Part shown: one piece after another, positions 22,698 to 47,420 of the stretch
Layout of the letters: each line of letters starts with the position of its first letter
Numbering within the stretch: position 1 is the stretch's first letter
DNA from: Patescibacteria group bacterium
Lineage (GTDB): Bacteria > Patescibacteriota > Minisyncoccia > Minisyncoccales > RBG-13-36-15
Length of the DNA stretch: 64,000 nucleotides
Reading direction: 5' to 3'
NCBI GenBank assembly: GCA_018609195.1
Contig: JAHCSE010000001.1
Coordinates: 9,559 to 73,558 of the forward strand
Notes under the pieces: generated by a model
Seen by the model: the letters and a program-made list of their open reading frames with translations, nothing else
What the model was told of the DNA's origin: nothing
Database searches by the model: none
Made by a program: the position numbers and the translations under genes

Positions 22698-22770
22698 CGG
22701 GGCATAGTGTAATGGTTAACATTTGCGCATGGGGTGCGTAAGATTCTGGGTTCGAATCCCAGTGCCCCGA
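22698..22770 (+). tRNA. tRNA-Pro (anticodon GGG)
   Basis: Hand-folded cloverleaf: acceptor CGGGGCA/TGCCCCG, D-stem GTGT/ACAT, anticodon stem TGCGC/GCGTA, loop ATGGGGT (U33, GGG, G37), T-arm CTGGG-TTCGAAT-CCCAG, discriminator A; 73 nt, CCA not encoded. Confidence 0.8.
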
Positions 22771-22845
22771 CTAAAAGCAATTTCTCTCAATCCTAAGGAA
22801 AACATCTCTGAGAGATGAAAAAATTGAGGAACATGGTTTACAAAT

Positions 22846-30731: not shown

Positions 30732-31253
30732 TTAGTATTCAACCCCTATTTTTGCTAAAACCCCTTTTTTAAAAGGGTGTTTTATTTCTTTACATTCAGT
30801 TGCCAAATCAGCAATCTTAATTAACTCTTTGGGGGCACCTCTCCCAGTAAGAATTAAATCTACTTCAGAAGGAGCTTTTTTTAGAATTTCCAAGACTTCT
30901 CTTAATTTAATGAGATTTAAAGAGATGGCAACATTTACTTCATCTAAAATTATCAAGTCAAATTCTCCAGAATGAATCGCATTTTTGGCAATTTTTAAGG
31001 TCTCTCGGGCTGCAAGTTCGTGAACTTCTCGGGGAAGCTTGTCCCCCATTATCCCAACAAAACCTTCTCCGCCTTTTATCAATTGAAATTTTGGTTCTAG
31101 GCTTTGGATGGTCTTTTCCTCGCCAGTTGGCCATTTTTTACTTTTAATGAACTGAATCATCAAAACTCGCTTTCCCTGGCCAACTGCCCGAATTCCCTGG
31201 CCAATGGCAGCTGTCGTTTTCCCTTTTCCATTCCCAGTAAAAACAAAAATCAT
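30732..31253 (-). CDS. cobO: Cob(I)alamin adenosyltransferase (CobO/BtuR family)
   Basis: 173 aa; MIFVFTGNGKGKTTAAIGQ. Confidence 0.8.
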   Translation of the reverse strand: MIFVFTGNGKGKTTAAIGQGIRAVGQGKRVLMIQFIKSKKWPTGEEKTIQSLEPKFQLIKGGEGFVGIMGDKLPREVHELAARETLKIAKNAIHSGEFDLIILDEVNVAISLNLIKLREVLEILKKAPSEVDLILTGRGAPKELIKIADLATECKEIKHPFKKGVLAKIGVEY

Positions 31254-33553: not shown

Positions 33554-34122
33554 TATTTTATTGTACCAAATTTTGTTTTGGGCAACAAAATGGCTCTCTT
33601 TAATAGATAGTATATGAGTCTTTTATTCAAAACGAACTCGTAAACTCCGAAAAACAAGGTGACATAGAAAAGATTTCCTAAAATTGTATTTTTAAAAAAT
33701 AGTAAAGCCATGTAATAAGAAAGAAGCAATCCAGAAAGATCCTCTGGATACCAAGGGGTAAAAGCCCAGACAGCAAAATTAGTGATGAGATAAAACAATA
33801 GCGCTGCAAATAAAGAACTACTCAATATCATTCCCGGGCCTTTGTGTTTCCTCAACCAAAGGCCTATTAGACCGATTATACCAAAGCTCCCATATACTGC
33901 AATCATTAATTTTAAGCTATAAAACCCGATAAAATAATCACTTATCAACATGGCGAGAAGAGGCGCAACCAAGAAATACTTTTTTCTAAGATAAACACCG
34001 CCAAACAAAGAAATAGCTGCAATGGGAGCAAAATTAGGGGGGTGGGGCAAAAGCCTTAGACTCACTCCGATGATAATTAAGACCAATACACCTAAAATTT
34101 CTAAAATTTTTTCTTTTTTCAT
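33553..34122 (-). CDS. Polytopic membrane protein, possibly ECF-type substrate (B12) capture component
   Basis: 189 aa, 5-6 TM; context next to nrdJ and DUF4430. Confidence 0.4.
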   Translation of the reverse strand: MKKEKILEILGVLVLIIIGVSLRLLPHPPNFAPIAAISLFGGVYLRKKYFLVAPLLAMLISDYFIGFYSLKLMIAVYGSFGIIGLIGLWLRKHKGPGMILSSSLFAALLFYLITNFAVWAFTPWYPEDLSGLLLSYYMALLFFKNTILGNLFYVTLFFGVYEFVLNKRLIYYLLKRAILLPKTKFGTIK

Positions 34123-34805
34123 TTATTTTTTAGGGATACTTTTTGTATATTCATATACATTAGCGAATCTTTTGCATGCTTCGAATAAACATTTATATGA
34201 ATGCTTTTCTTAAATGGTGGCCCATCTACAACCATGGTATGATACTCCCCTTGTTCCCCACAAATATCAAGCCCCGTTTCGGCATTTATTGCCCGCAACC
34301 GCTCTAAAGAATCCTTCTTAAGTTCCATTCCAAGCAAATTATCATCCGTAAACCAAGGTTTCTTTATACAAGTAAAAATTAATTTAAATCTGTATGAAAG
34401 AAGTCGATTAAGAAGTTCTAATCTATCACGTCCCCACAGTGGAGTTAGGACACCAATACCTGAATATTTACTGCATTCTCTTACCCAATTAGGGTGGCCA
34501 TCAACTTCTGCAATATCGCCAGTTATTAATGTAGCTATTCCGTGTTTTTCTTTTAAAGAATGAATAGCTTTTTCATAGCTTTCTTTGAATGGCTCATTAA
34601 CCTCCAATGCATAATGTGGAATACCCAAAGCTTCTGCTTGATATTTCATAAAACTAAGAGGATGAGCAAGAAATTCTGGTTCACTGGGAATGAACGTAAC
34701 TAGACTTATAACTCTATATCCCAACAACTTTGCTTCATAAAGAGCCAAAGAAGAATCTTTCCCACCAGTCCACGATACGGCTGCGTTCCTCATCACTTTA
34801 TTCAT
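34119..34805 (-). CDS. Second Dph6/MJ0570-family PP-loop ATPase paralog
   Basis: 228 aa; SWTGGKDS, EYHT. Confidence 0.65.
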   Translation of the reverse strand: MNKVMRNAAVSWTGGKDSSLALYEAKLLGYRVISLVTFIPSEPEFLAHPLSFMKYQAEALGIPHYALEVNEPFKESYEKAIHSLKEKHGIATLITGDIAEVDGHPNWVRECSKYSGIGVLTPLWGRDRLELLNRLLSYRFKLIFTCIKKPWFTDDNLLGMELKKDSLERLRAINAETGLDICGEQGEYHTMVVDGPPFKKSIHINVYSKHAKDSLMYMNIQKVSLKNK

Positions 34806-34829
34806 AATTTAATAATTCCCAATTTTATA

Positions 34830-35297
34830 TCATTCAAATTGAGATTGAAAAAATTTCCATTCTACGATATCTCCATCTTCTAACTGAAACTGGCTTGCTC
34901 CAACTTGCGCGTATTCATTGTTGACCCAATACTGCCAGTATTTATTATCTTTACCATTTTCTTTATCACCAATTTGTTTAATAAAGGAGCCAAATTCTGG
35001 GTGCAAATCATAATCTAACGCAAAAGGATTTTCTGTATCACTTGAGCAAATCTCTAATAAATCAAGTACAGTTCTTTTTTCTTTTAGTTTCTGATTATTG
35101 CAAGTGATAATTTTCCCATCTGAAAAATCAAGCATCAAAGAAACACTAATTTCTTCTTTTGGTTGAACAGATTTCTCAAAATCTTGAACTGGAGGAGGCG
35201 CAATCTCTCCTTGAAAAATAAAAGAGCCTGCTGTTAAACCTAAAGCAAAACCAGCTCCGAAAATGATGATAGTTTTCATTCCATTAAACATCTTCAT
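34830..35297 (-). CDS. DUF4430-like (transcobalamin-like) secreted B12-binding protein
   Basis: 155 aa; signal/TM then ...YWQYWVNNEYAQVGASQFQLEDGDIVEWKF. Confidence 0.55.
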   Translation of the reverse strand: MKMFNGMKTIIIFGAGFALGLTAGSFIFQGEIAPPPVQDFEKSVQPKEEISVSLMLDFSDGKIITCNNQKLKEKRTVLDLLEICSSDTENPFALDYDLHPEFGSFIKQIGDKENGKDNKYWQYWVNNEYAQVGASQFQLEDGDIVEWKFFQSQFE

Positions 35298-35308
35298 AGA
35301 AATAAAAA

Positions 35309-35605
35309 TTAAAATCGAGGAATTAAACTCATAATTCCTTTCGAACCAACTAAAACGGCAGCAATCAGGAAAAGGAAGTTAGGAAGAACTACCCAAAAAC
35401 TTAAGAGAAGCAATCCTCCTCCCGTAATATCCATCAGGCCTCCGATATCTAAGGGAAAAAGAAAACCTTTTATCAATAAATAGCCCCCGAAAATAATTAA
35501 AATGAGTAGAGAAACATCCACTTGAAAGGCTCTTGATAATAATAAGCCTGCACTCGCGATGTCCATTAATCCCAAGGAGAACATAAAAGAAATTAAAAAT
35601 CCCAC
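35309..35605 (-). CDS. Small membrane protein (first gene after the candidate riboswitch)
   Basis: 98 aa, 3 TM. Confidence 0.4.
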   Translation of the reverse strand: MGFLISFMFSLGLMDIASAGLLLSRAFQVDVSLLILIIFGGYLLIKGFLFPLDIGGLMDITGGGLLLLSFWVVLPNFLFLIAAVLVGSKGIMSLIPRF

Positions 35606-35679
35606 CTCGAGTGGGATGGAAACTCCCCAAGCTTAGTCGCTTGGGTTGGCCTTTCCCTTTGCTCGAAGGTAGAGGTTAA

Positions 35680-35830
35680 AAAAATGTGTCCTCCTCCGTT
35701 AAAACTTTGGAGGACATGGATGGCATTCTGACTTTCACAGTTACGGCATAGTCCCGGATTTCCTGCCCGCATCGCTATACGAAGTATTGCAGGCGGGTCA
35801 CCGGAGTTCCCCATCCGTTTTCAAAGTCCG
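35680..35830 (-). ncRNA. Candidate cobalamin riboswitch in the 5' leader of the B12-uptake/nrdJ gene string
   Basis: Minus-strand GGGGAACTCCGGTGACCCGCC ... GGAAATCCGGGACTATGCCGTAACTGTGA resembles GGGAAnnnGGTGa / AAnTCC / CCGCnACnGTnA cores; GC-rich and structured. Confidence 0.4.
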
Positions 35831-35915
35831 TTAATAAATAATATCAGCTTGCACGAAGTAGTGTCAAGAGAAAATCTGGGGATAACTGATTTAATTTGGA
35901 GAGATTTCTTAAAAT

Positions 35916-36494
35916 CTAAATTTTACCTACTAATTTTAATCCGGGTTTTAAGGTTCTCTTTCCAGGTTCCCAACTGGCTGGGCAAACCAATCCTTTGTGT
36001 TCTCTGACAAATTTAGCTGCCTGCAATTTTCGTAAGATTTCTTTGACCGATCTGCCAATGCTATTGTTGTGCATTTCAAAAGCTTTAAGCTGACCATCAG
36101 GATCAATAATGAAAGTTCCTCGTAAAGAAAGACCTTCTTTTTCAATGTAGGTACCAAATTCTTGGCAAAGCTTTCCCGTTGGATCAGCTACCATCGGGAA
36201 TTTAATCTTTTTAATCGAAGGAGAATTATCATGCCAGGCCTTATGTACAAAAGCCGTATCGGTGCTCACACTTAAGATCTCTGCTCCCAATTTCTTAAAT
36301 TCAGAATAATATTTCGCAGCTTCTTCTAATTCTGTTGGGCAAACAAACGTAAAATCAGCAGGATAAAATAGCAATATAATCCATTTTCCCTTGTAATCAG
36401 AAAGTTTAATTTTTTTTATTTTTCCACTATGAAAAGCTTCCAACTCAACATCAGGTACTTTTTGATCAATTTTAACCATAGTTTTGTTAAACAA
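35916..36494 (-). CDS. Peroxiredoxin (AhpC/TSA, typical 2-Cys)
   Basis: 192 aa; FTFVCPTE. Confidence 0.9.
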   Translation of the reverse strand: MFNKTMVKIDQKVPDVELEAFHSGKIKKIKLSDYKGKWIILLFYPADFTFVCPTELEEAAKYYSEFKKLGAEILSVSTDTAFVHKAWHDNSPSIKKIKFPMVADPTGKLCQEFGTYIEKEGLSLRGTFIIDPDGQLKAFEMHNNSIGRSVKEILRKLQAAKFVREHKGLVCPASWEPGKRTLKPGLKLVGKI

Positions 36495-36508
36495 TTTTAA
36501 TTTTTATT

Positions 36509-36520
36509 GCGACCTTTTAC
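36509..36520 (-). promoter_or_regulatory. AAAGGTCGC motif (site 2), ~30 nt upstream of the peroxiredoxin
   Basis: gCGACCTTTTAC then hairpin CCCCGTTAGAAAT...ATTTCTAACGGGG (36521..36589). Confidence 0.45.
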
Positions 36521-36588
36521 CCCGTTAGAAATTTGTTCTTTCTACACTTTCTCCATTGTATTTGGTATTTCTAACGGGGTTTACTTTA

Positions 36589-36957
36589 TTAAATAAATAT
36601 TATTTTCCCTAAAACTAAATTTTTATTCACTTGACCAAAATTTTTACTCGATTCTGACCAGGAAACAGTGCCTTCTACAAAATAAAAATTATTTTTTATT
36701 TCTTTCACTTTTTTCACAAATATTTCTTTTCGGTTTTTTGGGTTTTGAAAAACAATAAAATCAGAAACTTTGGGTTTCAACAAATTAGTGGCCAAATACC
36801 TTTTCTCCGGAACTAAATTTGGCCAAGCTGATTCCCCTTCAACTTTTACCAGAAAAATCAATCCCAAAATTTTAGTAAAGTTTATCAGTGATTTCTTTAT
36901 AGGATTTAAATCTCTCTGGGACATTTTTAACCTCATAGAAGATTTTCGCAATTTCAT
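36589..36957 (-). CDS. sodX: SodX-like S26-family peptidase (NiSOD maturation protease); true start probably internal (M8/M12)
   Basis: GESAWPNL resembles the S26 GxSMxP box; immediately downstream of and overlapping sodN. Confidence 0.6.
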   Translation of the reverse strand: MKLRKSSMRLKMSQRDLNPIKKSLINFTKILGLIFLVKVEGESAWPNLVPEKRYLATNLLKPKVSDFIVFQNPKNRKEIFVKKVKEIKNNFYFVEGTVSWSESSKNFGQVNKNLVLGKIIFI

Positions 36958-37345
36958 CTACTGCATCTAATAATTTCTTGGCAGCTGTTTCATTTACTTC
37001 CTGTTTATTTTGAGAGCAAAGTTTTACTGCCTTCCAGAAAAGTTCATGAAGATTAGGAAACTTCTCGAGATGTTCTTCTTTGAAGAAATCAGACCACAAA
37101 ATCTCAAGTTCCTTTTTGCAAAGCTCTGCATGGTCTTCCTTATTTTTGATTCTTCTTGCCACGCTATTGAAATACTGCAAAAGAGAGTCTTTGTCCATAA
37201 TATCTCTTGGTAATTCCAATTCCTTCAATTGTTGAATCATCCTGGCAACGGTTTTCGCAGCAATTTTGGCAGGAGTAGGTTCATAAATTGCACAAGGAAT
37301 ATCACAATGCGCTTGAGCTATAATTTTTGGAAAAAAATTCATCAT
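36872..37345 (-). CDS. sodN: Nickel superoxide dismutase (start at MMNFF; ORF extends to 37435)
   Basis: Propeptide ...IIAQA then Ni-hook HCDIPCAIYEP; ILWSDFFK..HLEKFPNLHEL matches NiSOD core. Confidence 0.85.
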   Translation of the reverse strand: MMNFFPKIIAQAHCDIPCAIYEPTPAKIAAKTVARMIQQLKELELPRDIMDKDSLLQYFNSVARRIKNKEDHAELCKKELEILWSDFFKEEHLEKFPNLHELFWKAVKLCSQNKQEVNETAAKKLLDAVDEIAKIFYEVKNVPERFKSYKEITDKLY

Positions 37346-37375
37346 AATCTTCGATCTATTTAAAGGAAAACTGAC

Positions 37376-37387
37376 CTCGACCTTTCC
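37376..37387 (-). promoter_or_regulatory. AAAGGTCGAG motif (site 3), ~32 nt upstream of sodN
   Basis: CTCGACCTTTCC then hairpin CCCCCCACCACTT...AAGTGGTGGGGGG (37388..37455). Confidence 0.45.
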
Positions 37388-37498
37388 CCCCACCACTTCT
37401 GCACTCGCTTTATGATACTTGTGCCAAAGGCACAAGTAGAAAAGTGGTGGGGGGTTTATCTAAGATTTTTATCATTTTGAATAAAAAAATCAAGTTTT

Positions 37499-38530
37499 TC
37501 AAAAAATCTCTGCGAAAAGTTTATTTGAAAAATAAATAACTTGCCAGAAATCTTTAGAAAATAAATCTTTTAAAGATGGTCTTTCTGGAGAAACGTGGCC
37601 GTACTTTTCAGATATTACTACCGTCTTTTTGCCAGAGTAAATTTCAGAAAGAAAAAGAGAATGAGGAAAAGGAATTAATTGATCCTTTTTTCCATGGAGA
37701 ATAAAGAGAGAGGCTTTAACTTCTGGAACCACGGTTTTTGGCGAGAGCGATTCGAGAATTTCATTGGTATAAGGTGGCAAGTCTCGAAAAAGTTTTTCTA
37801 ACTCTTCTCTCTGTTTGCTTTCCATAATTTTTTCAATAATTATTTTTCCTTCCAGAGTTTTTTCTTCTTCAAAAAATCTTTGAAGATTTTTTTCCACTAC
37901 CTCTTTAATTCTCAATGAAGGATCCCAAGAATTTACCTTTTCTTGATAAACAAAACTTTCAGAAAGCACCTCTTGAATAAGTTGCTTTGCATCAAAGTAT
38001 CCACCACTCCATAAAATGTATTTAACTTTCTCTTGAATCTCAGGATCTGCAGCTGCCAAGAAAGCAAGAGAGGAACCTACGGAAAGACCAAAAAAACCAA
38101 TTGTGCTAGAATCAATATAAGGTTTCTTTTCAAGGAATTGAAAGGCCTCTACAAGATTTTTTATTTCTTTTTTATCAATCAAGGAATCTTTTAAAGCTGA
38201 CGAGTCAACAGTGATAACCACTACTCCATTTTGTACCAATCCTTGAAAAAGTTTTTGTAAATTTTTCTCCTCAGCTCCTTGAGGATGAATACCAAGAGAA
38301 ATAACAACCCCCGGGTGCCTATTGTCATCAGCTGGACGGAAAATATAAAAGGTGGAGTCTTTATCTTTGGGGTAAATTTCTTGAATTACATCTTCTGAAA
38401 GTTCGGTTGCCTCTATTGGTAAAATAGAGAAGAGGAAGCTCAATGTTTTGAATGTCATTCCCAAGGGAGTAGCAACGAAAAGAAAGGTAATTACTGCCAA
38501 AAAAATAAATATTACAATAAAGAGCCTCAT
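37499..38530 (-). CDS. Secreted alpha/beta-hydrolase (dienelactone hydrolase-like)
   Basis: 343 aa; signal/TM; GLSVGS nucleophile elbow. Confidence 0.6.
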   Translation of the reverse strand: MRLFIVIFIFLAVITFLFVATPLGMTFKTLSFLFSILPIEATELSEDVIQEIYPKDKDSTFYIFRPADDNRHPGVVISLGIHPQGAEEKNLQKLFQGLVQNGVVVITVDSSALKDSLIDKKEIKNLVEAFQFLEKKPYIDSSTIGFFGLSVGSSLAFLAAADPEIQEKVKYILWSGGYFDAKQLIQEVLSESFVYQEKVNSWDPSLRIKEVVEKNLQRFFEEEKTLEGKIIIEKIMESKQREELEKLFRDLPPYTNEILESLSPKTVVPEVKASLFILHGKKDQLIPFPHSLFLSEIYSGKKTVVISEKYGHVSPERPSLKDLFSKDFWQVIYFSNKLFAEIF

Positions 38531-38555
38531 TGATTATTCTTAAGTAAATACAAAT

Positions 38556-39476
38556 ATGCCTTGGCTTATTTTTGCAATTTTAGCTTATTTCTTTTTTGCT
38601 ATCAGCGTTTTTATTGATCGATTTTTAATGAAAGGTCCCCTGAAAAGTCCTTTCGCCTACGCCTTTTACGCAGGAGTGTTGACGAGTAGCGCAGTCTTTT
38701 TGCTTTTTTTGGATCTCGTATTTGATTTTTTTGAACCAGTATCTGTCACAACAATCACTCTTGGGCTTCTGGCTGGTTTTTTCGCAGTATGGACCTTATT
38801 GGTCTGGTTTACTTTGGTGTTAAAAGAAGAGGTATCGAGAGCAAGCCCAACGGTAGGGGCAATTCAGCCTATTTTTATAGTTGGAATTTCTTTATTATTC
38901 TTTCTCAAACAGGCCCTCCCTTCTCTTAATGAACTTTCTGCCTTTGTATTATTTTTGATAGGAAGTGTGATAATAATGCAAAAACCTGGAGAATTTCCTT
39001 TATTAAAAAATCACACAGCTCTTTTTATCTTGAGTGCTTTTTATTTTGCCTTTAGCTGGGTGATGCTAAAAACTATTTTTTTGTTAACTAATTTTTGGAC
39101 TGCTCTCTTTCTTTTGGGCGCGGGGGCTGTAATTGGAACAGCAGCCTTGCTTGTATTTCCAGAAACTCGCTCAGATTTAGCTAAAAAAGGTTTGCCAATT
39201 CAAAAAAGGGTTTTTCTCCCTTTTCTGATTGGTAGGGTCACCGGGGCATTGGGAGCAATTTTCCAATTGGTTGCTATCCGTTTTGCAACAATCACCCAGC
39301 TCCCTCTCATTGGAGCATTAACAGGAATTCAGTTTCTCTTTCTTTATGTAATTCTTTTCTTTTTTATCGGTCGATTCCCTCAAATGGAAGAACAAATGAC
39401 AGGTAAAGCCTTTTTCCAAAAACTCGGAGGAGTGGCAATTATTGGCCTTGGATTCTTAGCTTTAACTTTTGGATAA
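38556..39476 (+). CDS. Polytopic membrane protein (about 10 TM; DMT/EamA-like?)
   Basis: 306 aa, hydrophobicity only. Confidence 0.5.
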   Translation: MPWLIFAILAYFFFAISVFIDRFLMKGPLKSPFAYAFYAGVLTSSAVFLLFLDLVFDFFEPVSVTTITLGLLAGFFAVWTLLVWFTLVLKEEVSRASPTVGAIQPIFIVGISLLFFLKQALPSLNELSAFVLFLIGSVIIMQKPGEFPLLKNHTALFILSAFYFAFSWVMLKTIFLLTNFWTALFLLGAGAVIGTAALLVFPETRSDLAKKGLPIQKRVFLPFLIGRVTGALGAIFQLVAIRFATITQLPLIGALTGIQFLFLYVILFFFIGRFPQMEEQMTGKAFFQKLGGVAIIGLGFLALTFG

Positions 39477-39499
39477 TTATTTATGGTGAGCTTGTCGAA

Positions 39500-40279
39500 C
39501 TACTGAACGGTTAATTCTCCTTTCATGCCGTTTGCCCGGTGGCCAGGAACTGAGCAGAAAAAGGTATAAGTTCCGGAGGCTGAAGCAGTAAATTCAATCG
39601 TATCTGTCTTGCCAGAACCAATAGTTTTTGTTCCTACTCCTAATTCAGTAATTTTAAAATTGTGGATAATACTGCCATCGTTCCTGAAAGTTATTTTCAG
39701 TTGATCCCCAGCTGAAACAGTGATGGAAGCTGGGCTAAGACTAAATTCAGTACCACTGACGGTAATCTCTCTCACTATCGATGCTGGAGCAATACTCTTT
39801 GTAACCGTCATTGACTTTACCACAATCTTATCATCAACTTTCACTGGTACATCATCTCCTGGAAACTCATAGATGTCATCTCCATCATCAATATGGATCA
39901 TGGCAAAAAGGAAATTCTCTCCTTCTTGAAGCTCACTTACCACAACAGAAATGTTATTGTAGGTTCCAGATTCAACGAAATCAGAATTCCCAAGAACTTT
40001 CCCTGGTTTTCCATCTTCTGAAAGGTGAATCACAACATAGCCTGGGTCTTTAAAGCTTACCTCTTGGATAGTCACTTGATCTTCTGTAACCTGCTGATCC
40101 TGAACAGTAATCGCAGCCTGGGTTACTGGTGGTAGGAGTACTGTAGGTAGTGCTTCTGGTGGCTGATATCCTCCTTTCAATAGAAAATAGCCACCAATAA
40201 TAACCACCAAAATAATCACTATCACCCCTATCCACTTACACCCGCACATCTTCTCTGATTTACAAATTAGACATTTCAT
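39500..40279 (-). CDS. Membrane-anchored cupredoxin (plastocyanin/azurin-type blue copper protein)
   Basis: C-terminal FFCSVPGHRANGMKG (Cys-x2-His-x4-Met); paralog of 59724..60359. Confidence 0.7.
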   Translation of the reverse strand: MKCLICKSEKMCGCKWIGVIVIILVVIIGGYFLLKGGYQPPEALPTVLLPPVTQAAITVQDQQVTEDQVTIQEVSFKDPGYVVIHLSEDGKPGKVLGNSDFVESGTYNNISVVVSELQEGENFLFAMIHIDDGDDIYEFPGDDVPVKVDDKIVVKSMTVTKSIAPASIVREITVSGTEFSLSPASITVSAGDQLKITFRNDGSIIHNFKITELGVGTKTIGSGKTDTIEFTASASGTYTFFCSVPGHRANGMKGELTVQ

Positions 40280-40310
40280 AATTTTTTATCTTTAATTTTT
40301 TATTTTAAAG

Positions 40311-40377: not shown

Positions 40378-40842
40378 TTATTTTTCCTCAATTCTTTTTA
40401 TTTTTTTAATTCGCCTTTTATGGCGAGGTAATTGGCTAAATTTTGTTTTTAAAAATTTCTTCACAATCTCTCTTGCTTTTTTCTCTCTGATTTCCCAACC
40501 ATCAAGGCATAAAATATTAATGTCATCTTCCTCTCTTAGTTTTTTTGCCTGTAAAGGGGTAAAAGCTTGAGCTGCCCTAATACCTTTGATTTTGTTTGCT
40601 ACAATACATACTCCAGCTCCAGAACCACAAATTAAAATTCCTTTATCTTTTGTTTTAGCCACTTTTTTGGCAACGGGAATTGCAAAGTCTGGGTAGTCAT
40701 CTTTTGGATCAAATTTTGTGTTTCCCAAATCTCTATAATCAATACCTAATTTTTTGAGGTATTTTTTTATTACCTTTTTTAGCTTAAAACCATTATGGTC
40801 AGCTCCCAGAAGAATTTTCATCTCGTTAAAAATTTCTTTCAT
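40378..40842 (-). CDS. rpiB: Ribose-5-phosphate isomerase B
   Basis: 154 aa; ILLGADHNGF...ICGSGAGV. Confidence 0.85.
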   Translation of the reverse strand: MKEIFNEMKILLGADHNGFKLKKVIKKYLKKLGIDYRDLGNTKFDPKDDYPDFAIPVAKKVAKTKDKGILICGSGAGVCIVANKIKGIRAAQAFTPLQAKKLREEDDINILCLDGWEIREKKAREIVKKFLKTKFSQLPRHKRRIKKIKRIEEK

Positions 40843-40858
40843 GTTTTTATTGAACCAA

Positions 40859-41692
40859 TTAACCTATGCACAGCTCTCTCGCTTCCTTCTGAAGTTTTTT
40901 GACAGCCCTTGGCTGAAGGCCAATTATTTGAACTAAATCGTATAATGAATATTTTAATATATCTTTAGCTAACATCAGTTTCTTTTCAGCTAATCTCTGT
41001 CTGGCGTATTTCGTAAGCGAAGGTAAAATCGTAATCGGGTAAAGTCCCTTCTTCTCAATTAAATACTCCAAGCTTTCATCTCTCGGATAGTGCCAACCAA
41101 TGATTTTCAAACCGACACAGCGAGCATAGCCAATTGCCTCACTCGTGCATCTGGTATTCGTTACCAACCAAGCTTGATGAAAATGCTGCCCTTTTTCTCT
41201 GATTTTTTCCCAAGCCTTTTTTATATCTAAAAATCTGGCAAAAGTATACAAAGCTACTTTTATATCAGAACGGCTCCCCCGGCTATTGTGATATTTGCAC
41301 TCAACCATAAAATGCTTTTTTCCTTTCTGGGCAATGACATCAATTTCATGACGAACACAATATCCCCTCACTATTCTTCCTATTTTTGTATTATAACCAT
41401 ATCCTCTTAAAATTTCTGAAACGTATTTTTCAAAAAGAAAACCAGCTGGCCCCAATTTCATAATCGCTCTTTTTAGATTATATCGAGCAGCTAATATGGG
41501 ATTTTCTCTTCTCAGGCATTGCGTAACTTGACTCAAAATCTTTCCCGAACTATCGCCGGGGACAATAGTTCTGGCCACCTCCTGACAAACTTCTTGAGCC
41601 AGTTTTGGCTGAACGCCAACCCGTTTGAGGGAGCTATAGATTTTCTCTTTGCTGAATTTTTCTTTCTCACCTGAAGCTTTGATTATATCCAT
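40859..41692 (-). CDS. ATP-cone domain fused to a PD-(D/E)xK (Mrr-like) restriction-endonuclease domain
   Basis: N-terminal IIKASGEKEKFSKEKIYSSLKRVG (ATP-cone); then HEIDVIA...MVECKYH nuclease motifs. Confidence 0.6.
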   Translation of the reverse strand: MDIIKASGEKEKFSKEKIYSSLKRVGVQPKLAQEVCQEVARTIVPGDSSGKILSQVTQCLRRENPILAARYNLKRAIMKLGPAGFLFEKYVSEILRGYGYNTKIGRIVRGYCVRHEIDVIAQKGKKHFMVECKYHNSRGSRSDIKVALYTFARFLDIKKAWEKIREKGQHFHQAWLVTNTRCTSEAIGYARCVGLKIIGWHYPRDESLEYLIEKKGLYPITILPSLTKYARQRLAEKKLMLAKDILKYSLYDLVQIIGLQPRAVKKLQKEARELCIG

Positions 41693-42405
41693 TATTTATT
41701 TCGGATAGGTGTCTTTTTAATAATAGCAAAAGCCTCTTCTGCTGAATCAACAAGATGAAAAATTTGCAGATCCTTTCTCCTCACTGCTTTTTGTTTTTTG
41801 AAAACCTCGTTTTCAATCCAATGAAATAATGGCTGCCAATACTCTTTGCCAACAGCAACAACAGAAACTTGCTGAGGTAATTTTCTCGTTTGGATTAAAG
41901 TCACCATTTCAAAAAATTCATCCAAAGTACCAAAACCACCAGGAAAAAAGACATAGCCGCAACAAGCAGAAGAAAGCATTACTTTCCGAGTAAAAAAATA
42001 GTGAAAACCAATTGGGCTTTTGACATATTCGTTCATGCTCTGGCCTTCGGGAAGTTGGATGTTAATGCCAACCGATTCTCCCCCGACTTCAAAGGCTCCC
42101 CGATTGGCAGCTTCCATGATTCCGGGCCCCCCGCCAGTCATTACCGCATAACCTGCTTTAGCCAATAATTGAGCTAATTTTCTGGCTTCTTGATAATAAG
42201 GATTTTTGGGAGAAAAGCGAGTTGAGCCAAAAATAGCTACTGATTTTTTAAAATCTGCGATAAACTGAAAACCCTCCACAAATTCAGCCATTATTCTAAA
42301 AATTCTCCACTGGAAGGTCTTTCTAAAATCCTCTTTTACTGGAGGGAGTTCACTTTCTGGCAGACAAATTATTTTTTTTAATTTTGGAACTTTTGATTTT
42401 TTCAT
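41692..42405 (-). CDS. LOG-family (TIGR00730) nucleotide 5'-monophosphate nucleosidase-like protein
   Basis: 237 aa; VAIFGSTR...MTGGGPGIMEAANRGA...PGGFGTLDE. Confidence 0.8.
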   Translation of the reverse strand: MKKSKVPKLKKIICLPESELPPVKEDFRKTFQWRIFRIMAEFVEGFQFIADFKKSVAIFGSTRFSPKNPYYQEARKLAQLLAKAGYAVMTGGGPGIMEAANRGAFEVGGESVGINIQLPEGQSMNEYVKSPIGFHYFFTRKVMLSSACCGYVFFPGGFGTLDEFFEMVTLIQTRKLPQQVSVVAVGKEYWQPLFHWIENEVFKKQKAVRRKDLQIFHLVDSAEEAFAIIKKTPIRNK

Positions 42406-42416
42406 TATTCGTAGGA

Positions 42417-43328
42417 TTATCTCTTCACTTTATGGTGGCCGAATTGTTCTCTGAGAGCGGAAAGGATTTTTCCAGTATAGTTTGGTTTCTTCTGGCTTGA
42501 GACGCGGAATTGAAAAGAATCTTCAATCACTTTCACTTTAATTTTCCATTTTTTAGCTACTTTCACCGTCCACTCCCCTTCCCCGGTATGAGAAACCTTA
42601 CCTGAAACATCTTGAAGATTCTCACCATGTTTTTCAAAGGCTTTTTTTAACCAATCCATTAAGCGAGATTGAATGACGCTGCCGTAATTATAAACATCAG
42701 CCACTCTTTTTAAATCAAGTTTAAAAGGAGCGCTTCGTATCAAATTAAAACCTTCTGCAATTGATTGCATCATTCCATACTCAATCCCGTTGTGAACCAT
42801 TTTCACAAAGTGGCCAGCTCCCACTCCCTCAAAAAATTGAAAACCATTTTTCGTTGCCAAATCTCTAAAAAGGGGTTTTAACTTTTCAAAGTTTCTTTTC
42901 TTCCCTCCAATCATTAAGCAAGCGCCTTTCCGAGCTCCCTCTGGACCTCCTGATACCCCCACATCGAAAAACTCAATTCCTTTCTTAGCAAGTTTTTTTG
43001 ATCTTTTTATTGAATCTAAATAAAAAGAATTGCCTCCATCAATCACTATATCTCCTTTTTTTAAAAAATATATTAAGCCGCCCTTCCTAAATAAAACCTC
43101 ATCTACTGGTTTTCCAGCGGGTATCATTAACCAAATCAATCTTGGAGGAGAAAGTCTTTTTATTAAATCTTCTGGAGAATCAACAGAAATTGCTCTTTTC
43201 TTTGACAATTCTTTTTTCGGTCTAGGATTTTTATCGTAAACAATAACTTTCCAATTTCTTCCCAGTAATCTCAAAGCCATATTTTTCCCCATTTTCCCTA
43301 AACCGATAAGACCTATTTCTTTTTTCAT
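42417..43328 (-). CDS. 6-phosphogluconate dehydrogenase (decarboxylating), short YqeC/Gnd-like form
   Basis: 303 aa; IGLIGLGKMGKNMALRL Rossmann N-terminus. Confidence 0.8.
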   Translation of the reverse strand: MKKEIGLIGLGKMGKNMALRLLGRNWKVIVYDKNPRPKKELSKKRAISVDSPEDLIKRLSPPRLIWLMIPAGKPVDEVLFRKGGLIYFLKKGDIVIDGGNSFYLDSIKRSKKLAKKGIEFFDVGVSGGPEGARKGACLMIGGKKRNFEKLKPLFRDLATKNGFQFFEGVGAGHFVKMVHNGIEYGMMQSIAEGFNLIRSAPFKLDLKRVADVYNYGSVIQSRLMDWLKKAFEKHGENLQDVSGKVSHTGEGEWTVKVAKKWKIKVKVIEDSFQFRVSSQKKPNYTGKILSALREQFGHHKVKR

Positions 43329-43348
43329 ATTTTTTTAATTCTCAAATT

Positions 43349-44602
43349 TTATTTTCGTAAAATTTTCCTGGTCTCTTTTTTATACAATTCAACTCCTGGT
43401 TGGTCAAAGGCATTCACGCGCATCAACTTTGCCAAAAAGATAATTTCTATCATTTTCATTTGAAAGAGCGCTCCCAGACTTCTTTCATCCAATTCTGGCA
43501 AAATTGTCTCGGTAAAAGGGAGTTTTTTCTTGATATAGGCCTTTTTCACTCCCTCAAAAATTGCCAAAGTGAGTTCCCAGATTTTCTTTCCTTCGCTCCC
43601 CGGAAAAAGGAAATCAAGATCTCTATTTGGAGGAATCTGAAAGTCATGATTTAAATTTTTAACAAAAACAAAATTGATTAATTTATCCCTTGGCCCATCA
43701 AAATAAAGTTGAGCTAAAGAGTGAAAGTCAGTAGTGCCAACCGTAACAGTTGGAGTAATACCCTTTTTATCTTTGCCTAAACTTTCTGCCATTAATTGAC
43801 AATACCATCTCCCAAAGAATTCCAAATCCGGGGGAAAGACAAAATTACTATAAATGTTTTTCCCTTCCTTGTAGTGATAAAAAATGATTAAAGCTGAAGC
43901 TAAGGCTGGGTTTTTTAAAGGATTTGCTATCAAACAAATTTTATTTACCTCCTTAGCTCCCGCAAGCAACTCTTTTGGGTCAACCCCTGCCAAGGCTAAG
44001 GGAAAAATGCCAACATTACTCAAAACAGAATATCTCCCAGAAACCTCTTTCGGAATGGAAAGTATGGAGTAATTTCTTTTTTTCGCAAAATCCCAAAGAA
44101 TTGATCCTTCATTAGTGATGACAAAGATTTTAGGTTGATATCTTTTCAGAACTCTCAAAAGAACAAAAAAATTGGCAATGGTCTCAAAAGTCTTGCCTGT
44201 TTTACTCACCAGACAAACTGCAATCTCATCTCTTTTAAGAGGAGCTAATTTCAATTTTGAAATAAGTTCAGAAAAAGAAAGAGGGTTAAGAGTGTCAAGG
44301 AAAAAAATTTCAACTAAATCTGCTTTCTTTCTTTTCAGTGCTTTATAGACTGCCTCCGTCCCCAAACTCGATCCTCCAATTCCTACTACAATAATCAACT
44401 TGAGATTTTTTGGAATTTTTTTTAAAAAAATTGGCTTTTCAGTAGGTAACAATAAAAAACTTTCTGGAAATTTATAATTCTTTTCTTTTAAAATATTTTT
44501 AATCTTTTTCAGATAATTACTAATTTCTCCTTTTTTGTGAAAAAAAGTCAAAGGTACTTGGCTAATTTTTTGGAAGTTAAATTGGAACATGGGTCTCATC
44601 AT
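43349..44602 (-). CDS. pgi: Glucose-6-phosphate isomerase
   Basis: 417 aa; GGRYSVLSNVG, SIS domains. Confidence 0.8.
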   Translation of the reverse strand: MMRPMFQFNFQKISQVPLTFFHKKGEISNYLKKIKNILKEKNYKFPESFLLLPTEKPIFLKKIPKNLKLIIVVGIGGSSLGTEAVYKALKRKKADLVEIFFLDTLNPLSFSELISKLKLAPLKRDEIAVCLVSKTGKTFETIANFFVLLRVLKRYQPKIFVITNEGSILWDFAKKRNYSILSIPKEVSGRYSVLSNVGIFPLALAGVDPKELLAGAKEVNKICLIANPLKNPALASALIIFYHYKEGKNIYSNFVFPPDLEFFGRWYCQLMAESLGKDKKGITPTVTVGTTDFHSLAQLYFDGPRDKLINFVFVKNLNHDFQIPPNRDLDFLFPGSEGKKIWELTLAIFEGVKKAYIKKKLPFTETILPELDERSLGALFQMKMIEIIFLAKLMRVNAFDQPGVELYKKETRKILRK

Positions 44603-46030
44603 TTAAAATTTGCTTTTCGGCCCCTCAGATCCTGGTTTATACATTTTCAAAGGGGAAAGATTTTTTTGCCAACCTTTTAAAATTTGATCAATAAATCGCC
44701 AGCTATTCAGAGTCTCTCCGGTACTGACAAACAAAGTCTGATCACCCAAAAAAGAATCAATTAAAAGTTTTTCATAGGCTTCTAAAAGTTTTGCTTTGGG
44801 ATAGGCTTCTTGATAAATAAAGTGGAAAGTTTTTTTCTCAATTTCCATTTTTGGTCCTGGCTTTTTGACATTAAAACAATAGGATATGCCTTCTTTAGGT
44901 TGAATTTGAAAACATAAAGTATTTTTATAATGTTCTAACTCAGCTGGTGGACAAAAAAGACAAGGAGTGGTTTGTCTAAAAGTGATTAAAATCTCAGCTA
45001 CGTCCTGGTTTAATTTTTTACCACTTTCTAAATAAATAGGGACTCCCTCCCACCTTGGATGATGTAAAAAAGTCTTGATTTTAAAATAAGTCTCTCTCCG
45101 GGAATGGGGTTTAACTCCTGGGATTTCCAAATAGCCCTGGTATTGCCCTCTTACCGTATTCATTTTAATATCTTTTTTCGTCATTTTGGGGAGATATTTC
45201 AAAATCTCCGCTTTTTTTTCTCTAATCTCTTGGGGAGCTAAGTTAGGAGGAGCATCCATTGTGATTAAAGCCAGCATTTGTAAAAGGTGGTTTTGGCCAA
45301 CATCTCGTAAAGCCCCGAGGGGATCATAGAATAATCCTCTCTTTTCCACACCTTCTTTCTCCAAAAGCCTTATTTCAATTTTTTCAATAAAATCTTTGTT
45401 CCAGAGATTCTCAAAAACTGAGTTGGCAAAACGGAAAACTAATAAATTGGAAATCGTCTCTTTGGCTAAATAATGGTCAATTCGGAAAACCTGAATTTCT
45501 TTAAATAATTTGCCTAAAAGTTGATCCAACTTCTGAGCTCTCTCTAAATCTTGGCCAAAAGGCTTTTCCACCAAAACTCGAGTCCACCCTTCCTCAGGAC
45601 TACAAGGTTGCGTCAAACCGGATTTAGCTAAATTTTTAAAAATTATTTCATAATAATTTGGCGGGACAGCCAAATAAAATAATTTATTGGCACAAGTTCG
45701 AAATTTTCCATCAATGTGGCCTAATTTTTTACCTAGTGCAAAATAGCTTTCCATATTTTCAAAAAGCCCTGGTTGGTAGGAGAATTTTTTCAAAAGATCC
45801 TCAACCTTTGGGCTTTTTTTTAATAAATTTTTTCTTAACCAACCTTGATATTCTTTTTCTGTAAAATTTTCTTTTGCAAAACCAATAACTTGAAACATCT
45901 TTGGCAGAAAACCAGTTTGAGACAAATGCAAAATGCTTGGGAGTAATTTCCTTTCCATCAAATCTCCAGTGGCTCCAAAAATTATTAAAATCGTTGGGAA
46001 ATTTTCTAATTTCCTTTCAAGATTTTTCAT
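44603..46030 (-). CDS. zwf: Glucose-6-phosphate 1-dehydrogenase
   Basis: 475 aa; FGATGDL, RIDHYLAKE. Confidence 0.9.
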   Translation of the reverse strand: MKNLERKLENFPTILIIFGATGDLMERKLLPSILHLSQTGFLPKMFQVIGFAKENFTEKEYQGWLRKNLLKKSPKVEDLLKKFSYQPGLFENMESYFALGKKLGHIDGKFRTCANKLFYLAVPPNYYEIIFKNLAKSGLTQPCSPEEGWTRVLVEKPFGQDLERAQKLDQLLGKLFKEIQVFRIDHYLAKETISNLLVFRFANSVFENLWNKDFIEKIEIRLLEKEGVEKRGLFYDPLGALRDVGQNHLLQMLALITMDAPPNLAPQEIREKKAEILKYLPKMTKKDIKMNTVRGQYQGYLEIPGVKPHSRRETYFKIKTFLHHPRWEGVPIYLESGKKLNQDVAEILITFRQTTPCLFCPPAELEHYKNTLCFQIQPKEGISYCFNVKKPGPKMEIEKKTFHFIYQEAYPKAKLLEAYEKLLIDSFLGDQTLFVSTGETLNSWRFIDQILKGWQKNLSPLKMYKPGSEGPKSKF

Positions 46031-46304
46031 AGATACTTAAGTTCTTTTACGTATGTGAGCCAGGGTTTTATCTCCACTGTCACCTGCTTTCCAGCGAATT
46101 CGTTTCGCTTCATATCTTCTAAAATCTCAGTATTTATCTCGCATTCTTTGCATTCACTCTTTATTGTAATGCCGAATTTACTTCCTGCCCAGCACCAGAG
46201 CGAAGCTCGGTGCTGGGCTAGTCCCGCACCGAAACAAAGTTTCTGGTGCGGGGCCCAGAGATACATTGTAATTTTTACTGATTTCATATTCTAATCCGGA
46301 GTTT

Positions 46305-47420
46305 TTACCCAAAAGTAAATGTAAAGACCTGAAGTCCTGGTGAGTGAATTATTATTTCTAACGTGTGCCATCCGTACTCCTTCCCCGTATCTACAAGATT
46401 ATAGAGTTTTGATTCTTTGACCTTCGCGAATGACTTCCCCTCTTTAAAAAACGAGTCAGCCCCTTTGTTTTGCTCGGTAAGATATTCTCCATCGAGCTTT
46501 ACTTCAAGCGTAATCTCTGAATTTTCTCGATTTTCGAGCACTACATTTACCTTATTGGCCTTGTAGCGAAGGATGAGTTTTCCTTTCTCATCCACAAATT
46601 CTGCAAATTCAGGGTTAATACTCCAAGTGCCCACAAAATAAAAGCGGTTTCGCGCGATGCGCTCAGGTTCTACAAATGTATGTGGTTCATTCGGGCGAAC
46701 ATTTTTATCTTTATTACCAAGATTATTTATGCGCAAATACCCGAGATATATTTCCGGAGTCCCAATTTTTCGGAACTCAACACCAAGAGGTGCTTCTTTG
46801 ATTTCTGAAATTTTGTCAATCGAGAGAAATCCAGCTTCCAAAAGAAGCTGTTGAATTGCTCGTTCGGTTTCTGCATAACGGCCCTCTCCGAAATGATGGT
46901 AACGAATATTTCCATTAACGTCTATCAAATATTCAGCCGGCCAGTATTGGTTTTGAAAGGCATTCCAGGTTTTGTGATCGTTGTCCAAGGCAACGGGATA
47001 TTCCAGATTATATTTGCGAACTTCTTGTAAAACATTTTCCTTCTTTTTTTCAAAATCAAATTCCGGAGAATGAACGCTTAAAAGAACAAAGCCGCTATCT
47101 TTATATTTTCGATGCCACTCCGAAAGATGCGGAAAGGTACGGATGCAGTTAATGCAGGTGTAGGTCCAAAAATCGACCAAAACTACTTTGCCTCTTAGTT
47201 CCTCGAGGGTCAATGGCTCGGAATTAATCCAATCTTCAATACCTACCAACTCAGGTGCCTTTCTTTCAATGGGCAATTTTTGTAATTGCGGAATGGGCAT
47301 GATTCCTTTGAAAGTAATAAGACCTTTTTTATTTAGATATGAAATAGTACCCGCGATCAAAAGAAGCGCTAAAAGAAATAAAAAAATATACCTCATTGAA
47401 GTAATTTGCTTTGCAAACAA
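46305..47420 (-). CDS. Secreted thioredoxin-fold (TlpA/redoxin-like) protein with a large C-terminal domain
   Basis: 371 aa; VVLVDFWTYTCINCIRTFPHL. Confidence 0.6.
   Translation of the reverse strand: MFAKQITSMRYIFLFLLALLLIAGTISYLNKKGLITFKGIMPIPQLQKLPIERKAPELVGIEDWINSEPLTLEELRGKVVLVDFWTYTCINCIRTFPHLSEWHRKYKDSGFVLLSVHSPEFDFEKKKENVLQEVRKYNLEYPVALDNDHKTWNAFQNQYWPAEYLIDVNGNIRYHHFGEGRYAETERAIQQLLLEAGFLSIDKISEIKEAPLGVEFRKIGTPEIYLGYLRINNLGNKDKNVRPNEPHTFVEPERIARNRFYFVGTWSINPEFAEFVDEKGKLILRYKANKVNVVLENRENSEITLEVKLDGEYLTEQNKGADSFFKEGKSFAKVKESKLYNLVDTGKEYGWHTLEIIIHSPGLQVFTFTFG

Follow-up and report, generated by a model that had tools for sequence, protein, structure and literature searches.

Nearly all that is understood of ATP-cones concerns their role as the on/off switch of ribonucleotide reductases (RNRs) and of the repressor NrdR. 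In the RNRs (NrdA, NrdD, NrdJ and the NrdB of Leeuwenhoekiella), the cone is an N-terminal allosteric domain that regulates the reductase, and in NrdR, the nucleotide-loaded cone steers, via oligomerization, a Zn-ribbon that binds the NrdR boxes; in reviews, the cone is treated as an RNR/NrdR device (PMC4390871). The nucleases of the PD-(D/E)xK fold come with other partners. The type IV Mrr restriction enzymes combine their catalytic domain (PF04471) with a winged-helix reader, Mrr_N, and Can2, Card1 and Cdn1, encoded in type III CRISPR loci, carry an N-terminal CARF sensor that binds cyclic oligoadenylate. In XPF and Mus81, the restriction-fold nuclease is followed by helix-hairpin-helix (HhH) helices, an order that is an established architecture. 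Here we describe a protein, denoted T, in which an ATP-cone is fused to such a nuclease. T is encoded by the open reading frame (ORF) 40859..41692 on the minus strand of a 64,000-nucleotide stretch (hereafter, the window) of contig JAHCSE010000001.1 (assembly GCA_018609195.1) from a Patescibacteria group bacterium. The domain composition of T is established; with respect to its role, we tentatively favor an adenine-nucleotide-gated DNA endonuclease for nucleic acid turnover or salvage under energy or redox stress, a reading that we rate as somewhat short of probable.

T belongs, over its full length, to the AF1548-like family and comprises three domains: the ATP-cone is followed by a PD-(D/E)xK nuclease and an HhH-like tail. 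The ORF and its parts in the window are:

40859..41692, minus strand: the whole ORF T, 277 amino acids (aa) and a stop codon, ATG start; ATP-cone, PD-(D/E)xK nuclease, AF1548_C
41453..41692, minus strand: ATP-cone domain, residues 1–80, with a beta-hairpin lid (2–12) and helices 15–24, 29–42, 49–63 and 65–78
41429..41455, minus strand: invariant junction L80-G81-P82-x-G84-F-x-F87-E88, cone to nuclease, from a 106-sequence alignment
41078..41437, minus strand: PD-(D/E)xK nuclease domain, residues about 86–205, alpha-beta-beta-beta-alpha-beta-alpha-beta; Mrr_cat, 1y88
41339..41347, minus strand: E116-I-D118 (GAA ATT GAT), strand with the catalytic Asp, read in the DNA; 106/106
41294..41302, minus strand: E131-C132-K133 (GAG TGC AAA), (D/E)xK motif, read in the DNA; E131 and K133 106/106, C132 97/106
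40871..41041, minus strand: AF1548-like C-terminal domain, residues 218–274 (PF22357), four short helices, HhH-like

A chance ORF is excluded by the 2813 homologues that are detected at E<=1e-3 (best non-self match, E=2e-140), given that the top 120 (nearly all 266–305 aa, 47–78% identical to T) align along their full length. Overall, the full-length relatives of T, with 40–78% identity, number in the thousands. Pfam identifies three domains in T, namely, ATP-cone (residues 1–47), Mrr_cat (86–192) and AF1548-like_C (218–274), and the AlphaFold2 model has a pLDDT of 89 and a pTM of 0.85. The fold and the domain order are established. The initial annotation, made from the sequence alone, had assigned this ORF an ATP-cone and a PD-(D/E)xK nuclease; both are confirmed by Pfam, the family matches and the predicted fold, and only the third domain, AF1548_C at the C-terminus, had been overlooked. 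The architecture is already catalogued and its nuclease half solved, so that T is an ordinary, typical member of a widespread, functionally uncharacterized family. In RefSeq, its relatives are already named ‘ATP cone domain-containing protein’ or ‘restriction endonuclease’; the NCBIfam search yielded no model for T.

The only solved relative of T found by sequence is AF1548 from Archaeoglobus fulgidus (PDB 1Y88, PF22357), with which T shares the nuclease core and the C-terminal helical domain. Residues 90–274 of T match 1Y88 with E=6.7e-37 in a sequence search and E=5e-53 with the family profile, and Foldseek superimposes the two structures with E=7e-15 and a TM score of 0.80 on the target. 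AF1548 is a structural genomics entry without an assigned function, its nuclease half solved in 2004; the deposited chain of 199 aa lacks an ATP-cone and offers no mechanism to borrow. The only paper on AF1548 found in the literature predicts, from the GOS homologues, a restriction endonuclease, i.e. a restriction-fold nuclease with catalytic D...ExK residues (Yooseph et al. 2007, PMC1821046), and the same residues are present in T.

In the model, the nuclease core consists of helix 87–97, strands 101–109, 114–123 and 126–133, helix 141–164 and strand 173–178. Mrr_cat (PF04471) matches residues 86–192 with 23.8 bits, only slightly above the cut-off of 21, and several other models of the PD-(D/E)xK fold give weaker, mostly sub-cut-off matches (DUF234, PDDEXK_11 and Card1_endonuc in T itself, Hjc and NERD in its relatives), so that the label ‘Mrr-like’ means little beyond the general fold. 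The initial annotation had likened the core to that of type IV restriction enzymes, but assigning T to the Mrr-type enzymes is not supported: T lacks the Mrr_N winged-helix reader domain, its N-terminus is an ATP-cone, and AF1548 is the sole solved relative that sequence searches retrieve. The catalytic motifs in that annotation, in contrast, hold. HEIDVIA and MVECKYH are present in the DNA, H115-E116-I-D118 being encoded by CAT GAA ATT GAT and M129-V-E131-C-K133 being likewise readable. In the 106-sequence family alignment, which spans bacteria and archaea and was used for all conservation counts, E88, E116, D118, E131, K133, R153, D156 and N179 are invariant in 106/106 members. No catalytic D, E or K residue is missing, and therefore, judging from the sequences, T is almost certainly catalytically active as a nuclease.

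The junction between the cone and the nuclease is conserved (G81, P82, G84, F87 and E88 in all 106 sequences) to the same extent as the active site, to which E88 probably contributes the first acidic residue. Because this segment joins the last cone helix straight to the first nuclease helix, the one bearing E88, it is a plausible route of allosteric coupling; it is also retained in the short ‘cone-less’ relatives. At the other end of the nuclease, PF22357 matches residues 218–274 with 37.6 bits, well above the cut-off of 23.9. In the relatives, the tail shows weak matches to HHH_5, RuvA_C and HHH_XRCC3_RpoA, which suggests that it is probably a non-specific duplex-DNA binder.

The nuclease domain also contains three conserved cysteines:

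41357–41359, 41297–41299 and 41117–41119, minus strand: C112, C132 and C192, from the 106-sequence alignment

These residues are conserved in 97–100 of the 106 sequences, and C132 is the x of ExK, inside the E-C-K catalytic motif. A fourth cysteine, C182, is replaced by Phe in most family members. A redox or metal role for C112, C132 and C192 is possible.

The N-terminal domain, the approximately 90 residues that the initial annotation had taken for an ATP-cone, is a borderline case when T alone is considered. PF03477 matches residues 1–47 with 24.9 bits (E=3e-5), below the gathering score of 25.8, and only positions 1–50 of the 88 in the profile are aligned. The weak score is offset at the family level: all 21 aligned relatives match PF03477 at E<=0.01 (alignment A1; best E=5e-9), and most of the 120 top homologues have a precomputed match. 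In the model, the cone region (pLDDT 84–95) includes strands 2–4 and 10–12, and Foldseek places it on the cones of Escherichia coli NrdR with a root mean square deviation of 1.6–2.4 Å over 79–80 columns, with RNR cones matched as well. Searches of residues 1–82 against the PDB, with the single sequence and with a profile, retrieved nothing beyond designed helical repeats and NrdR matches that were not significant (E about 1.2), so the membership in the cone family rests on the family-level Pfam matches, hhalign and the predicted fold. By these lines of evidence, the N-terminus of T is assigned to the ATP-cones.

The sequence similarity between the cones of T and NrdR is marginal (E about 1 for the profile against the PDB, 55% probability in hhalign), but the hhalign profile-sequence alignment of T with E. 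coli NrdR (the sequence used is identical to that of PDB 9GEX) pairs I3, K5, E11, F13, K17 and I18 with V51, K53, E59, F61, K65 and L66, the residues that cover or line the adenine (2025 NrdR structure paper, bioRxiv 10.1101/2025.03.28.645925). Across the family, K5 is found in 104 of the 106 sequences, K17 in 101, F13, as Phe or Tyr, in 103 and E11 in 61; Y71, in the last cone helix, is present in 100 and is Phe in the other 6. The adenine-contact residues are thus among the best conserved positions of the family, which argues for a cone that binds a ligand and lends support to the earlier idea that the nuclease could be gated by the nucleotide state. T shares with NrdR the cone fold and the adenine-contact residues and would also share the principle of a nucleotide-loaded cone steering a DNA-directed domain via oligomerization. 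The effectors differ, however: T has a nuclease and an HhH-like tail but no Zn-ribbon. Similarly, the RNR cones are homologous to that of T (PF03477, Foldseek) but regulate a reductase, whereas the cone of T is fused to a nuclease. No demonstrated case of a cone-regulated nuclease was found in the searchable literature.

The fusion is not a peculiarity of the window. In a scan of 185,579 species genomes, one genome per species, relatives of T were detected in at least 592 species of bacteria and archaea. The best 80 of these align along the full length with 40–61% identity and come from Patescibacteria, many Bacteroidota, Actinomycetota, one Deltaproteobacterium, and the archaeal Hadarchaeota, Woese-, Aenigm-, Alti- and Hydrothermarchaeota; Chlamydiota also carry the family (on a Criblamydia plasmid). 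Among the Bacteroidota, Pontibacter, Cyclobacterium and Terrimonas are carriers that are not labeled as metagenome-assembled genomes. When residues 86–277, i.e. the nuclease and the tail without the cone, were compared with 1.84 billion cluster representatives, 886 matches were obtained at E<=1e-3, 264 of these at E<=1e-30. Of the 150 best representatives, about 130 are 265–300 aa long, with the match starting at residue 86–100, and hence include the cone. Among these 150, no other type of N-terminal sensor was found, the cone being the sole N-terminal domain. Roughly 15 shorter matches in this set begin inside or just past the last cone helix, and several of these short ‘cone-less’ representatives look like truncated gene calls. 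Given the wide distribution and the prevalence of the cone among these representatives, the cone-nuclease fusion is old, fixed and dominant.

The immediate neighbors of T in the window are metabolic genes:

41692..42405, minus strand: LOG/TIGR00730-family gene (Lysine_decarbox, LDcluster4), upstream of T and translationally coupled, its stop codon overlapping the ATG of T
40378..40842, minus strand: rpiB, ribose-5-phosphate isomerase B, downstream of T, its start 16 nucleotides past the stop of T
42417..46030, minus strand: pentose-phosphate genes 6PGD-like, PGI and G6PD, upstream on the same strand, 11–20 nucleotides apart

The stop codon of LOG overlaps the start codon of T by 1 nucleotide (TAATG), and T is the fifth gene in the run G6PD-PGI-6PGD-like-LOG-T-RpiB, in which the gaps range from −1 to 20 nucleotides. 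These six genes probably form one transcription unit; a scan of the operon for promoters and terminators gave nothing above the shuffled expectation and no convincing internal signal of either kind. LOG-type enzymes are nucleotide phosphoribohydrolases that release the base and ribose-5-phosphate. The context given in the initial annotation, with rpiB and LOG adjoining T, is accurate, and neither a methyltransferase nor any recognizable defense gene is found within 10 kb on either side.

Comparison with other genomes (80 loci in which the surrounding ORFs were clustered, and 119 scanned for named neighbors, 121 after the addition of the annotated plasmid loci L120 and L121) reveals two recurrent contexts. 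In four Patescibacteria-type loci (L002, L090, L092 and L095), LOG lies directly upstream of T, overlapping it or at most 20 nucleotides away. The T proteins of these loci are 57–63% identical to T of the window, and the other neighbors differ. One of the four (L095) has the full LOG-T-RpiB arrangement, with RpiB directly downstream of T. RpiB is located within 2–6 kb of T in L002, L008 and L098, and in the last two loci, both RpiB and LOG are within 5 kb.

In Bacteroidota, the next gene after T on the same strand is a PIIA-type cation ATPase in 18 loci and a beta-CASP MBL nuclease in 11, and at most 6 kb away are an archaeal-type ‘thymidine’/AMP-phosphorylase-like enzyme and a ribose-phosphate diphosphokinase (Prs). 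The phosphorylase scores 598 bits against TIGR02645, above the cut-off, and 497 bits against TIGR03327 (AMP phosphorylase), below the cut-off of 535. The 121 loci include 24 with beta-CASP, 17 with the phosphorylase and 11 with Prs. In its most compact form, this context is a single operon:

L120 1972–6597 and L121 1137–15202: four-gene operon of T, beta-CASP MBL, phosphorylase and Prs, headed by T, with overlapping genes

According to the annotated records, this operon is common to a plasmid of Pontibacter (Bacteroidota) and a plasmid of Criblamydia (Chlamydiota). USP, ArsR, PPK2 and amylase are frequent companions of T in Bacteroidota, and the operons with beta-CASP, the phosphorylase or Prs are often flanked by P-type ATPase, USP, PPK2, glycogen/starch enzymes, phosphoketolase and acetate kinase. 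On the Criblamydia plasmid, P-type ATPase, phosphoketolase and glycogen phosphorylase (GlgP) lie on one side of the operon, and acetate kinase and glucoamylase on the other. In Bradyrhizobium diazoefficiens, the trio of MBL, Prs and phosphorylase is part of the core proteome induced by microoxia (PMC6515984, Table 2).

These two contexts underlie the reading that we favor. The enzyme sets that accompany T, LOG and RpiB in Patescibacteria and the AMP-phosphorylase-like enzyme, Prs and a second nuclease in Bacteroidota and Chlamydiota, are non-homologous, and turnover and salvage are favored because both sets combine cleavage of the glycosidic bond with ribose-phosphate metabolism, in different phyla. 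Under the proposed mechanism, the HhH-like tail would grip duplex DNA, which the PD-(D/E)xK site would cut in a Mg2+-dependent manner. Binding of ATP or dATP in the cone, or more generally the adenylate state, would change the oligomeric state of T or the orientation of its nuclease domain, and this change, passed across the rigid, invariant LGPxGFxFE junction, would act as a switch of the cutting activity, in the manner of the cones of RNR and NrdR. The products of the nuclease would be trimmed to nucleotides, the glycosidic bond of which would then be cleaved by LOG in the window or by the AMP-phosphorylase-like enzyme in Bacteroidota and Chlamydiota, and the resulting ribose phosphate could enter pentose-phosphate metabolism through RpiB or, elsewhere, Prs. 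The physiological role of T would then be housekeeping or stress-related nucleic acid turnover coupled to nucleotide salvage.

A number of observations weigh against this interpretation. An endonuclease alone yields no mononucleotides. The closest relative on a long contig, 71% identical to T, lacks LOG and RpiB and is flanked instead by CsoR on one side and by an unknown membrane protein, HhH-GPD and NUDIX on the other, so that a universal LOG/rpiB context was rejected. The genes next to T are unrelated to either context in Actinomycetota, Hadarchaeota and many Patescibacteria (ABC transporter, CsoR/CopA, DsbA, MsrA, MnmA, IF-2, TGT), and the heterogeneous neighbors in phyla other than Patescibacteria and Bacteroidota also include Ogg and glycerate kinase. 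With regard to the cone, the score of T itself is under the Pfam threshold, and the last cone helix gives no settled alignment of Y71 with Y131 of NrdR, the Tyr that discriminates between ATP and dATP. The residue following K5 is Ala in T, as opposed to Arg in many cones; E. coli NrdR has Ser at the matching position, yet binds nucleotides. Finally, the literature searches turned up no paper in which an ATP-cone nuclease, or the combination of a cone with an endonuclease, is described or tested.

The same operons can be read more boldly, although we consider this extension doubtful. T would then be the first ATP-cone-gated nuclease and, sensing energy and dATP, the entry valve of a pathway, so far undescribed, from nucleic acids to pentose phosphate and ATP under starvation or hypoxia. 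In Bacteroidota and Chlamydiota, this pathway would comprise T, beta-CASP, the AMP-phosphorylase-like and the Prs-like enzymes, beside phosphoketolase, acetate kinase, glycogen enzymes and PPK2; the Patescibacteria would have reassembled it from non-homologous components, namely, LOG, RpiB and the pentose-phosphate genes of the window.

That T is a DNA-processing effector, the other role proposed in the initial annotation, is plausible. An alternative to the favored reading is a structure-specific repair or recombination nuclease, Hjc-like or XPF/Mus81-like, with its activity tuned by the cone to the dATP/ATP ratio. Such tuning would couple DNA processing to the capacity for repair synthesis, that is, to the supply of dNTPs, especially under oxidative stress. 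Hjc matches in Pfam are found in 10 of the 21 relatives (E<=0.01; best E=1.8e-6), and the JGI has named some relatives ‘Holliday junction resolvase’, but in T itself the Hjc score (PF01870) is 13.9 bits, far under the cut-off of 21.1. The succession of a nuclease and an HhH-like tail recalls XPF and Mus81, as resemblance only: Pfam and Foldseek gave no significant match of T to XPF, Mus81, Hef or Hjc in sequence or structure, the ERCC4 signature is lacking, and no XPF, Mus81 or Hjc structure is among the top 50 Foldseek matches. Repair-type genes do occur near T, namely, an HhH-GPD glycosylase with NUDIX (L084), an archaeal Ogg (L043) and MsrA (L010), as do a class II RNR at distances from 1.1 kb (L091) to 7.3 kb (window) and, in Patescibacteria, many redox genes; repair genes, however, are neighbors in only 2–3 loci, and the strongest recurrent operons of T are metabolic. 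On balance, a repair nuclease appears rather unlikely. We regard as improbable the possibility that the cone is vestigial, a structural or oligomerization remnant, and that T is an AF1548-type nuclease that is either constitutive or regulated otherwise, for example by redox state or metal through its cysteines. The sub-threshold cone score with half of the profile aligned, the Lys-Ala in place of the Lys-Arg pair of many cones, the near-invariant C112, C132 and C192 along with the frequent redox or copper genes nearby, and the existence of cone-less relatives, such as AF1548, would all fit, and some RNR cones are known to be non-functional (PMC4390871, footnote 7). The conservation of K5 (104/106), K17 (101/106) and F13 as Phe or Tyr (103/106) is, however, hard to explain without ligand binding, and several of the ‘cone-less’ sequences resemble truncated gene calls that begin within the last cone helix. 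Least probable of all, and very much so, is an NrdR-like transcription factor in which the cone senses ATP/dATP, and the nuclease fold and the HhH-like tail only bind DNA, regulating nearby operons (RNR, P-type ATPase, stress genes). Its architecture, a cone joined to a DNA-binding domain, parallels that of NrdR, T often occupies the first or second position in its operon, following ArsR or CsoR, and three Patescibacteria loci have T near a class II RNR. Inactivated PD-(D/E)xK DNA binders, however, normally lose their catalytic residues, whereas E88, E116, D118, E131 and K133 are invariant in 106/106 sequences, which contradicts this interpretation.

Nothing supports a role of T in restriction or defense, and the idea that it is a defense effector, put forward in the initial annotation, is not borne out by the comparison. 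In this scenario, disturbance of the ATP/dATP pools by a phage would set off a type IV-like or abortive-infection nuclease, and there are some analogies to draw on. A nucleotide-ligand sensor at the N-terminus followed by a PD-(D/E)xK nuclease is the logic of Can2, Card1 and Cdn1, the nuclease domains of which Foldseek matches to that of T with E=1e-4 to 1e-2; T, however, contains an ATP-cone rather than a CARF domain, lacks CRISPR genes near it in the window, and has metabolic and stress genes as neighbors. The distribution is patchy, suggestive of horizontal gene transfer (at least 592 matches among the 185,579 species genomes), and this is the one feature compatible with defense. PADLOC reports weak matches of T to the ZorD Mrr-like nuclease and to CARF nucleases, but all are generic nuclease matches below threshold, the strongest at 17.5 bits (E=1.7e-4), and the adjacent LOG has a partial match to PsyrA at 31 bits. 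Against this stand the lack of Mrr_N or any other modification-reader domain in T by Pfam, which, like the lack of a defense context, sets it apart from the Mrr enzymes, and the lack of a methylase or a known defense gene in roughly 15 annotated neighborhoods, where, besides the LOG-PsyrA match, the neighbors have no defense matches. No homologue of T was detected in 50,697 phage records, and 72,556 plasmids yielded only 2 full-length matches, both within metabolic operons. Conservation is unusually high for a defense gene, with 40–49% full-length identity among Patescibacteria, Bacteroidota and archaea, and the architecture is fixed, the cone being the only N-terminal partner of the nuclease and sensor swapping not being seen among the best 150 representatives. 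Taken together, these observations make a defense effector decidedly improbable.

The wider surroundings of T in the window have several features of their own. The redox genes that flank T (AhpC/TSA, Ni-SOD, DsbD and cupredoxin) are part of a dense oxidative-stress and redox cluster in this Patescibacteria-like genome, at about 35900–40300 and 46300–47420. It contains several AhpC/TSA peroxiredoxins, a Ni-superoxide dismutase (36872–37345) with a small S26-peptidase-like gene, a cupredoxin/DUF7282 protein (39500–40279) and, further upstream, DsbD and thioredoxin-fold proteins; beside the cluster lies the full oxidative branch of the pentose-phosphate pathway (G6PD, 6PGD-like). An AdoCbl-II riboswitch (35713–35827, minus strand; 39.1 bits, gathering score 36.5) is followed, at 31250–35700 on the minus strand, by DUF4430, Diphthami_syn_2, DUF6580, a class II (B12-dependent) RNR and a CobA/CobO/BtuR adenosyltransferase. 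A B12-dependent RNR that apparently lies behind a B12 riboswitch is unusual, given that the normal targets of these riboswitches are B12-independent isozymes or uptake. The RNR (31250–33553, minus strand, 767 aa) has an N-terminal ATP-cone of its own and is located, together with the CobA-type adenosyltransferase, 7.3 kb from T; hence, at least two cone-bearing proteins are encoded within 10 kb in this genome. Only about 7% of class II RNRs carry an ATP-cone (PMC4390871, Table 2). The sole tRNA in the 64 kb window is tRNA-Pro(GGG) (22698–22771, plus strand).

Some recurrent neighbors in other genomes also deserve mention. CsoR, CopA-type ATPases and cupredoxins are found near T in about ten Patescibacteria-type loci; in three, T has a class II RNR accompanied by CobA in its vicinity. 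P-type ATPases of two different subfamilies recur next to T in different phyla. In three Patescibacteria loci, a conserved membrane protein of approximately 230 aa, 78% identical between the loci, overlaps the 3′ end of T (L084 8822–9514, L087 5828–6514, and L093); it has no match in Pfam or PADLOC.

The window gene itself is ordinary, and the interest lies in the family, which has thousands of members in bacteria and archaea. A sensor fused to an intact nuclease, if it functions in this manner, would extend cone-type allostery to DNA cleavage. The recurring operons, LOG-T-RpiB on the one hand and T-beta-CASP-phosphorylase-Prs on the other, the latter lying beside energy-reserve and hypoxia genes, give a concrete hypothesis, namely, nucleic acid breakdown gated by the adenylate or dATP status, which would be relevant for nucleotide scavenging in the reduced-genome Patescibacteria and for the physiology of dormancy. 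Carriers with isolate genomes (Pontibacter, Cyclobacterium and Terrimonas) make genetics feasible, and the family is an attractive and tractable target.

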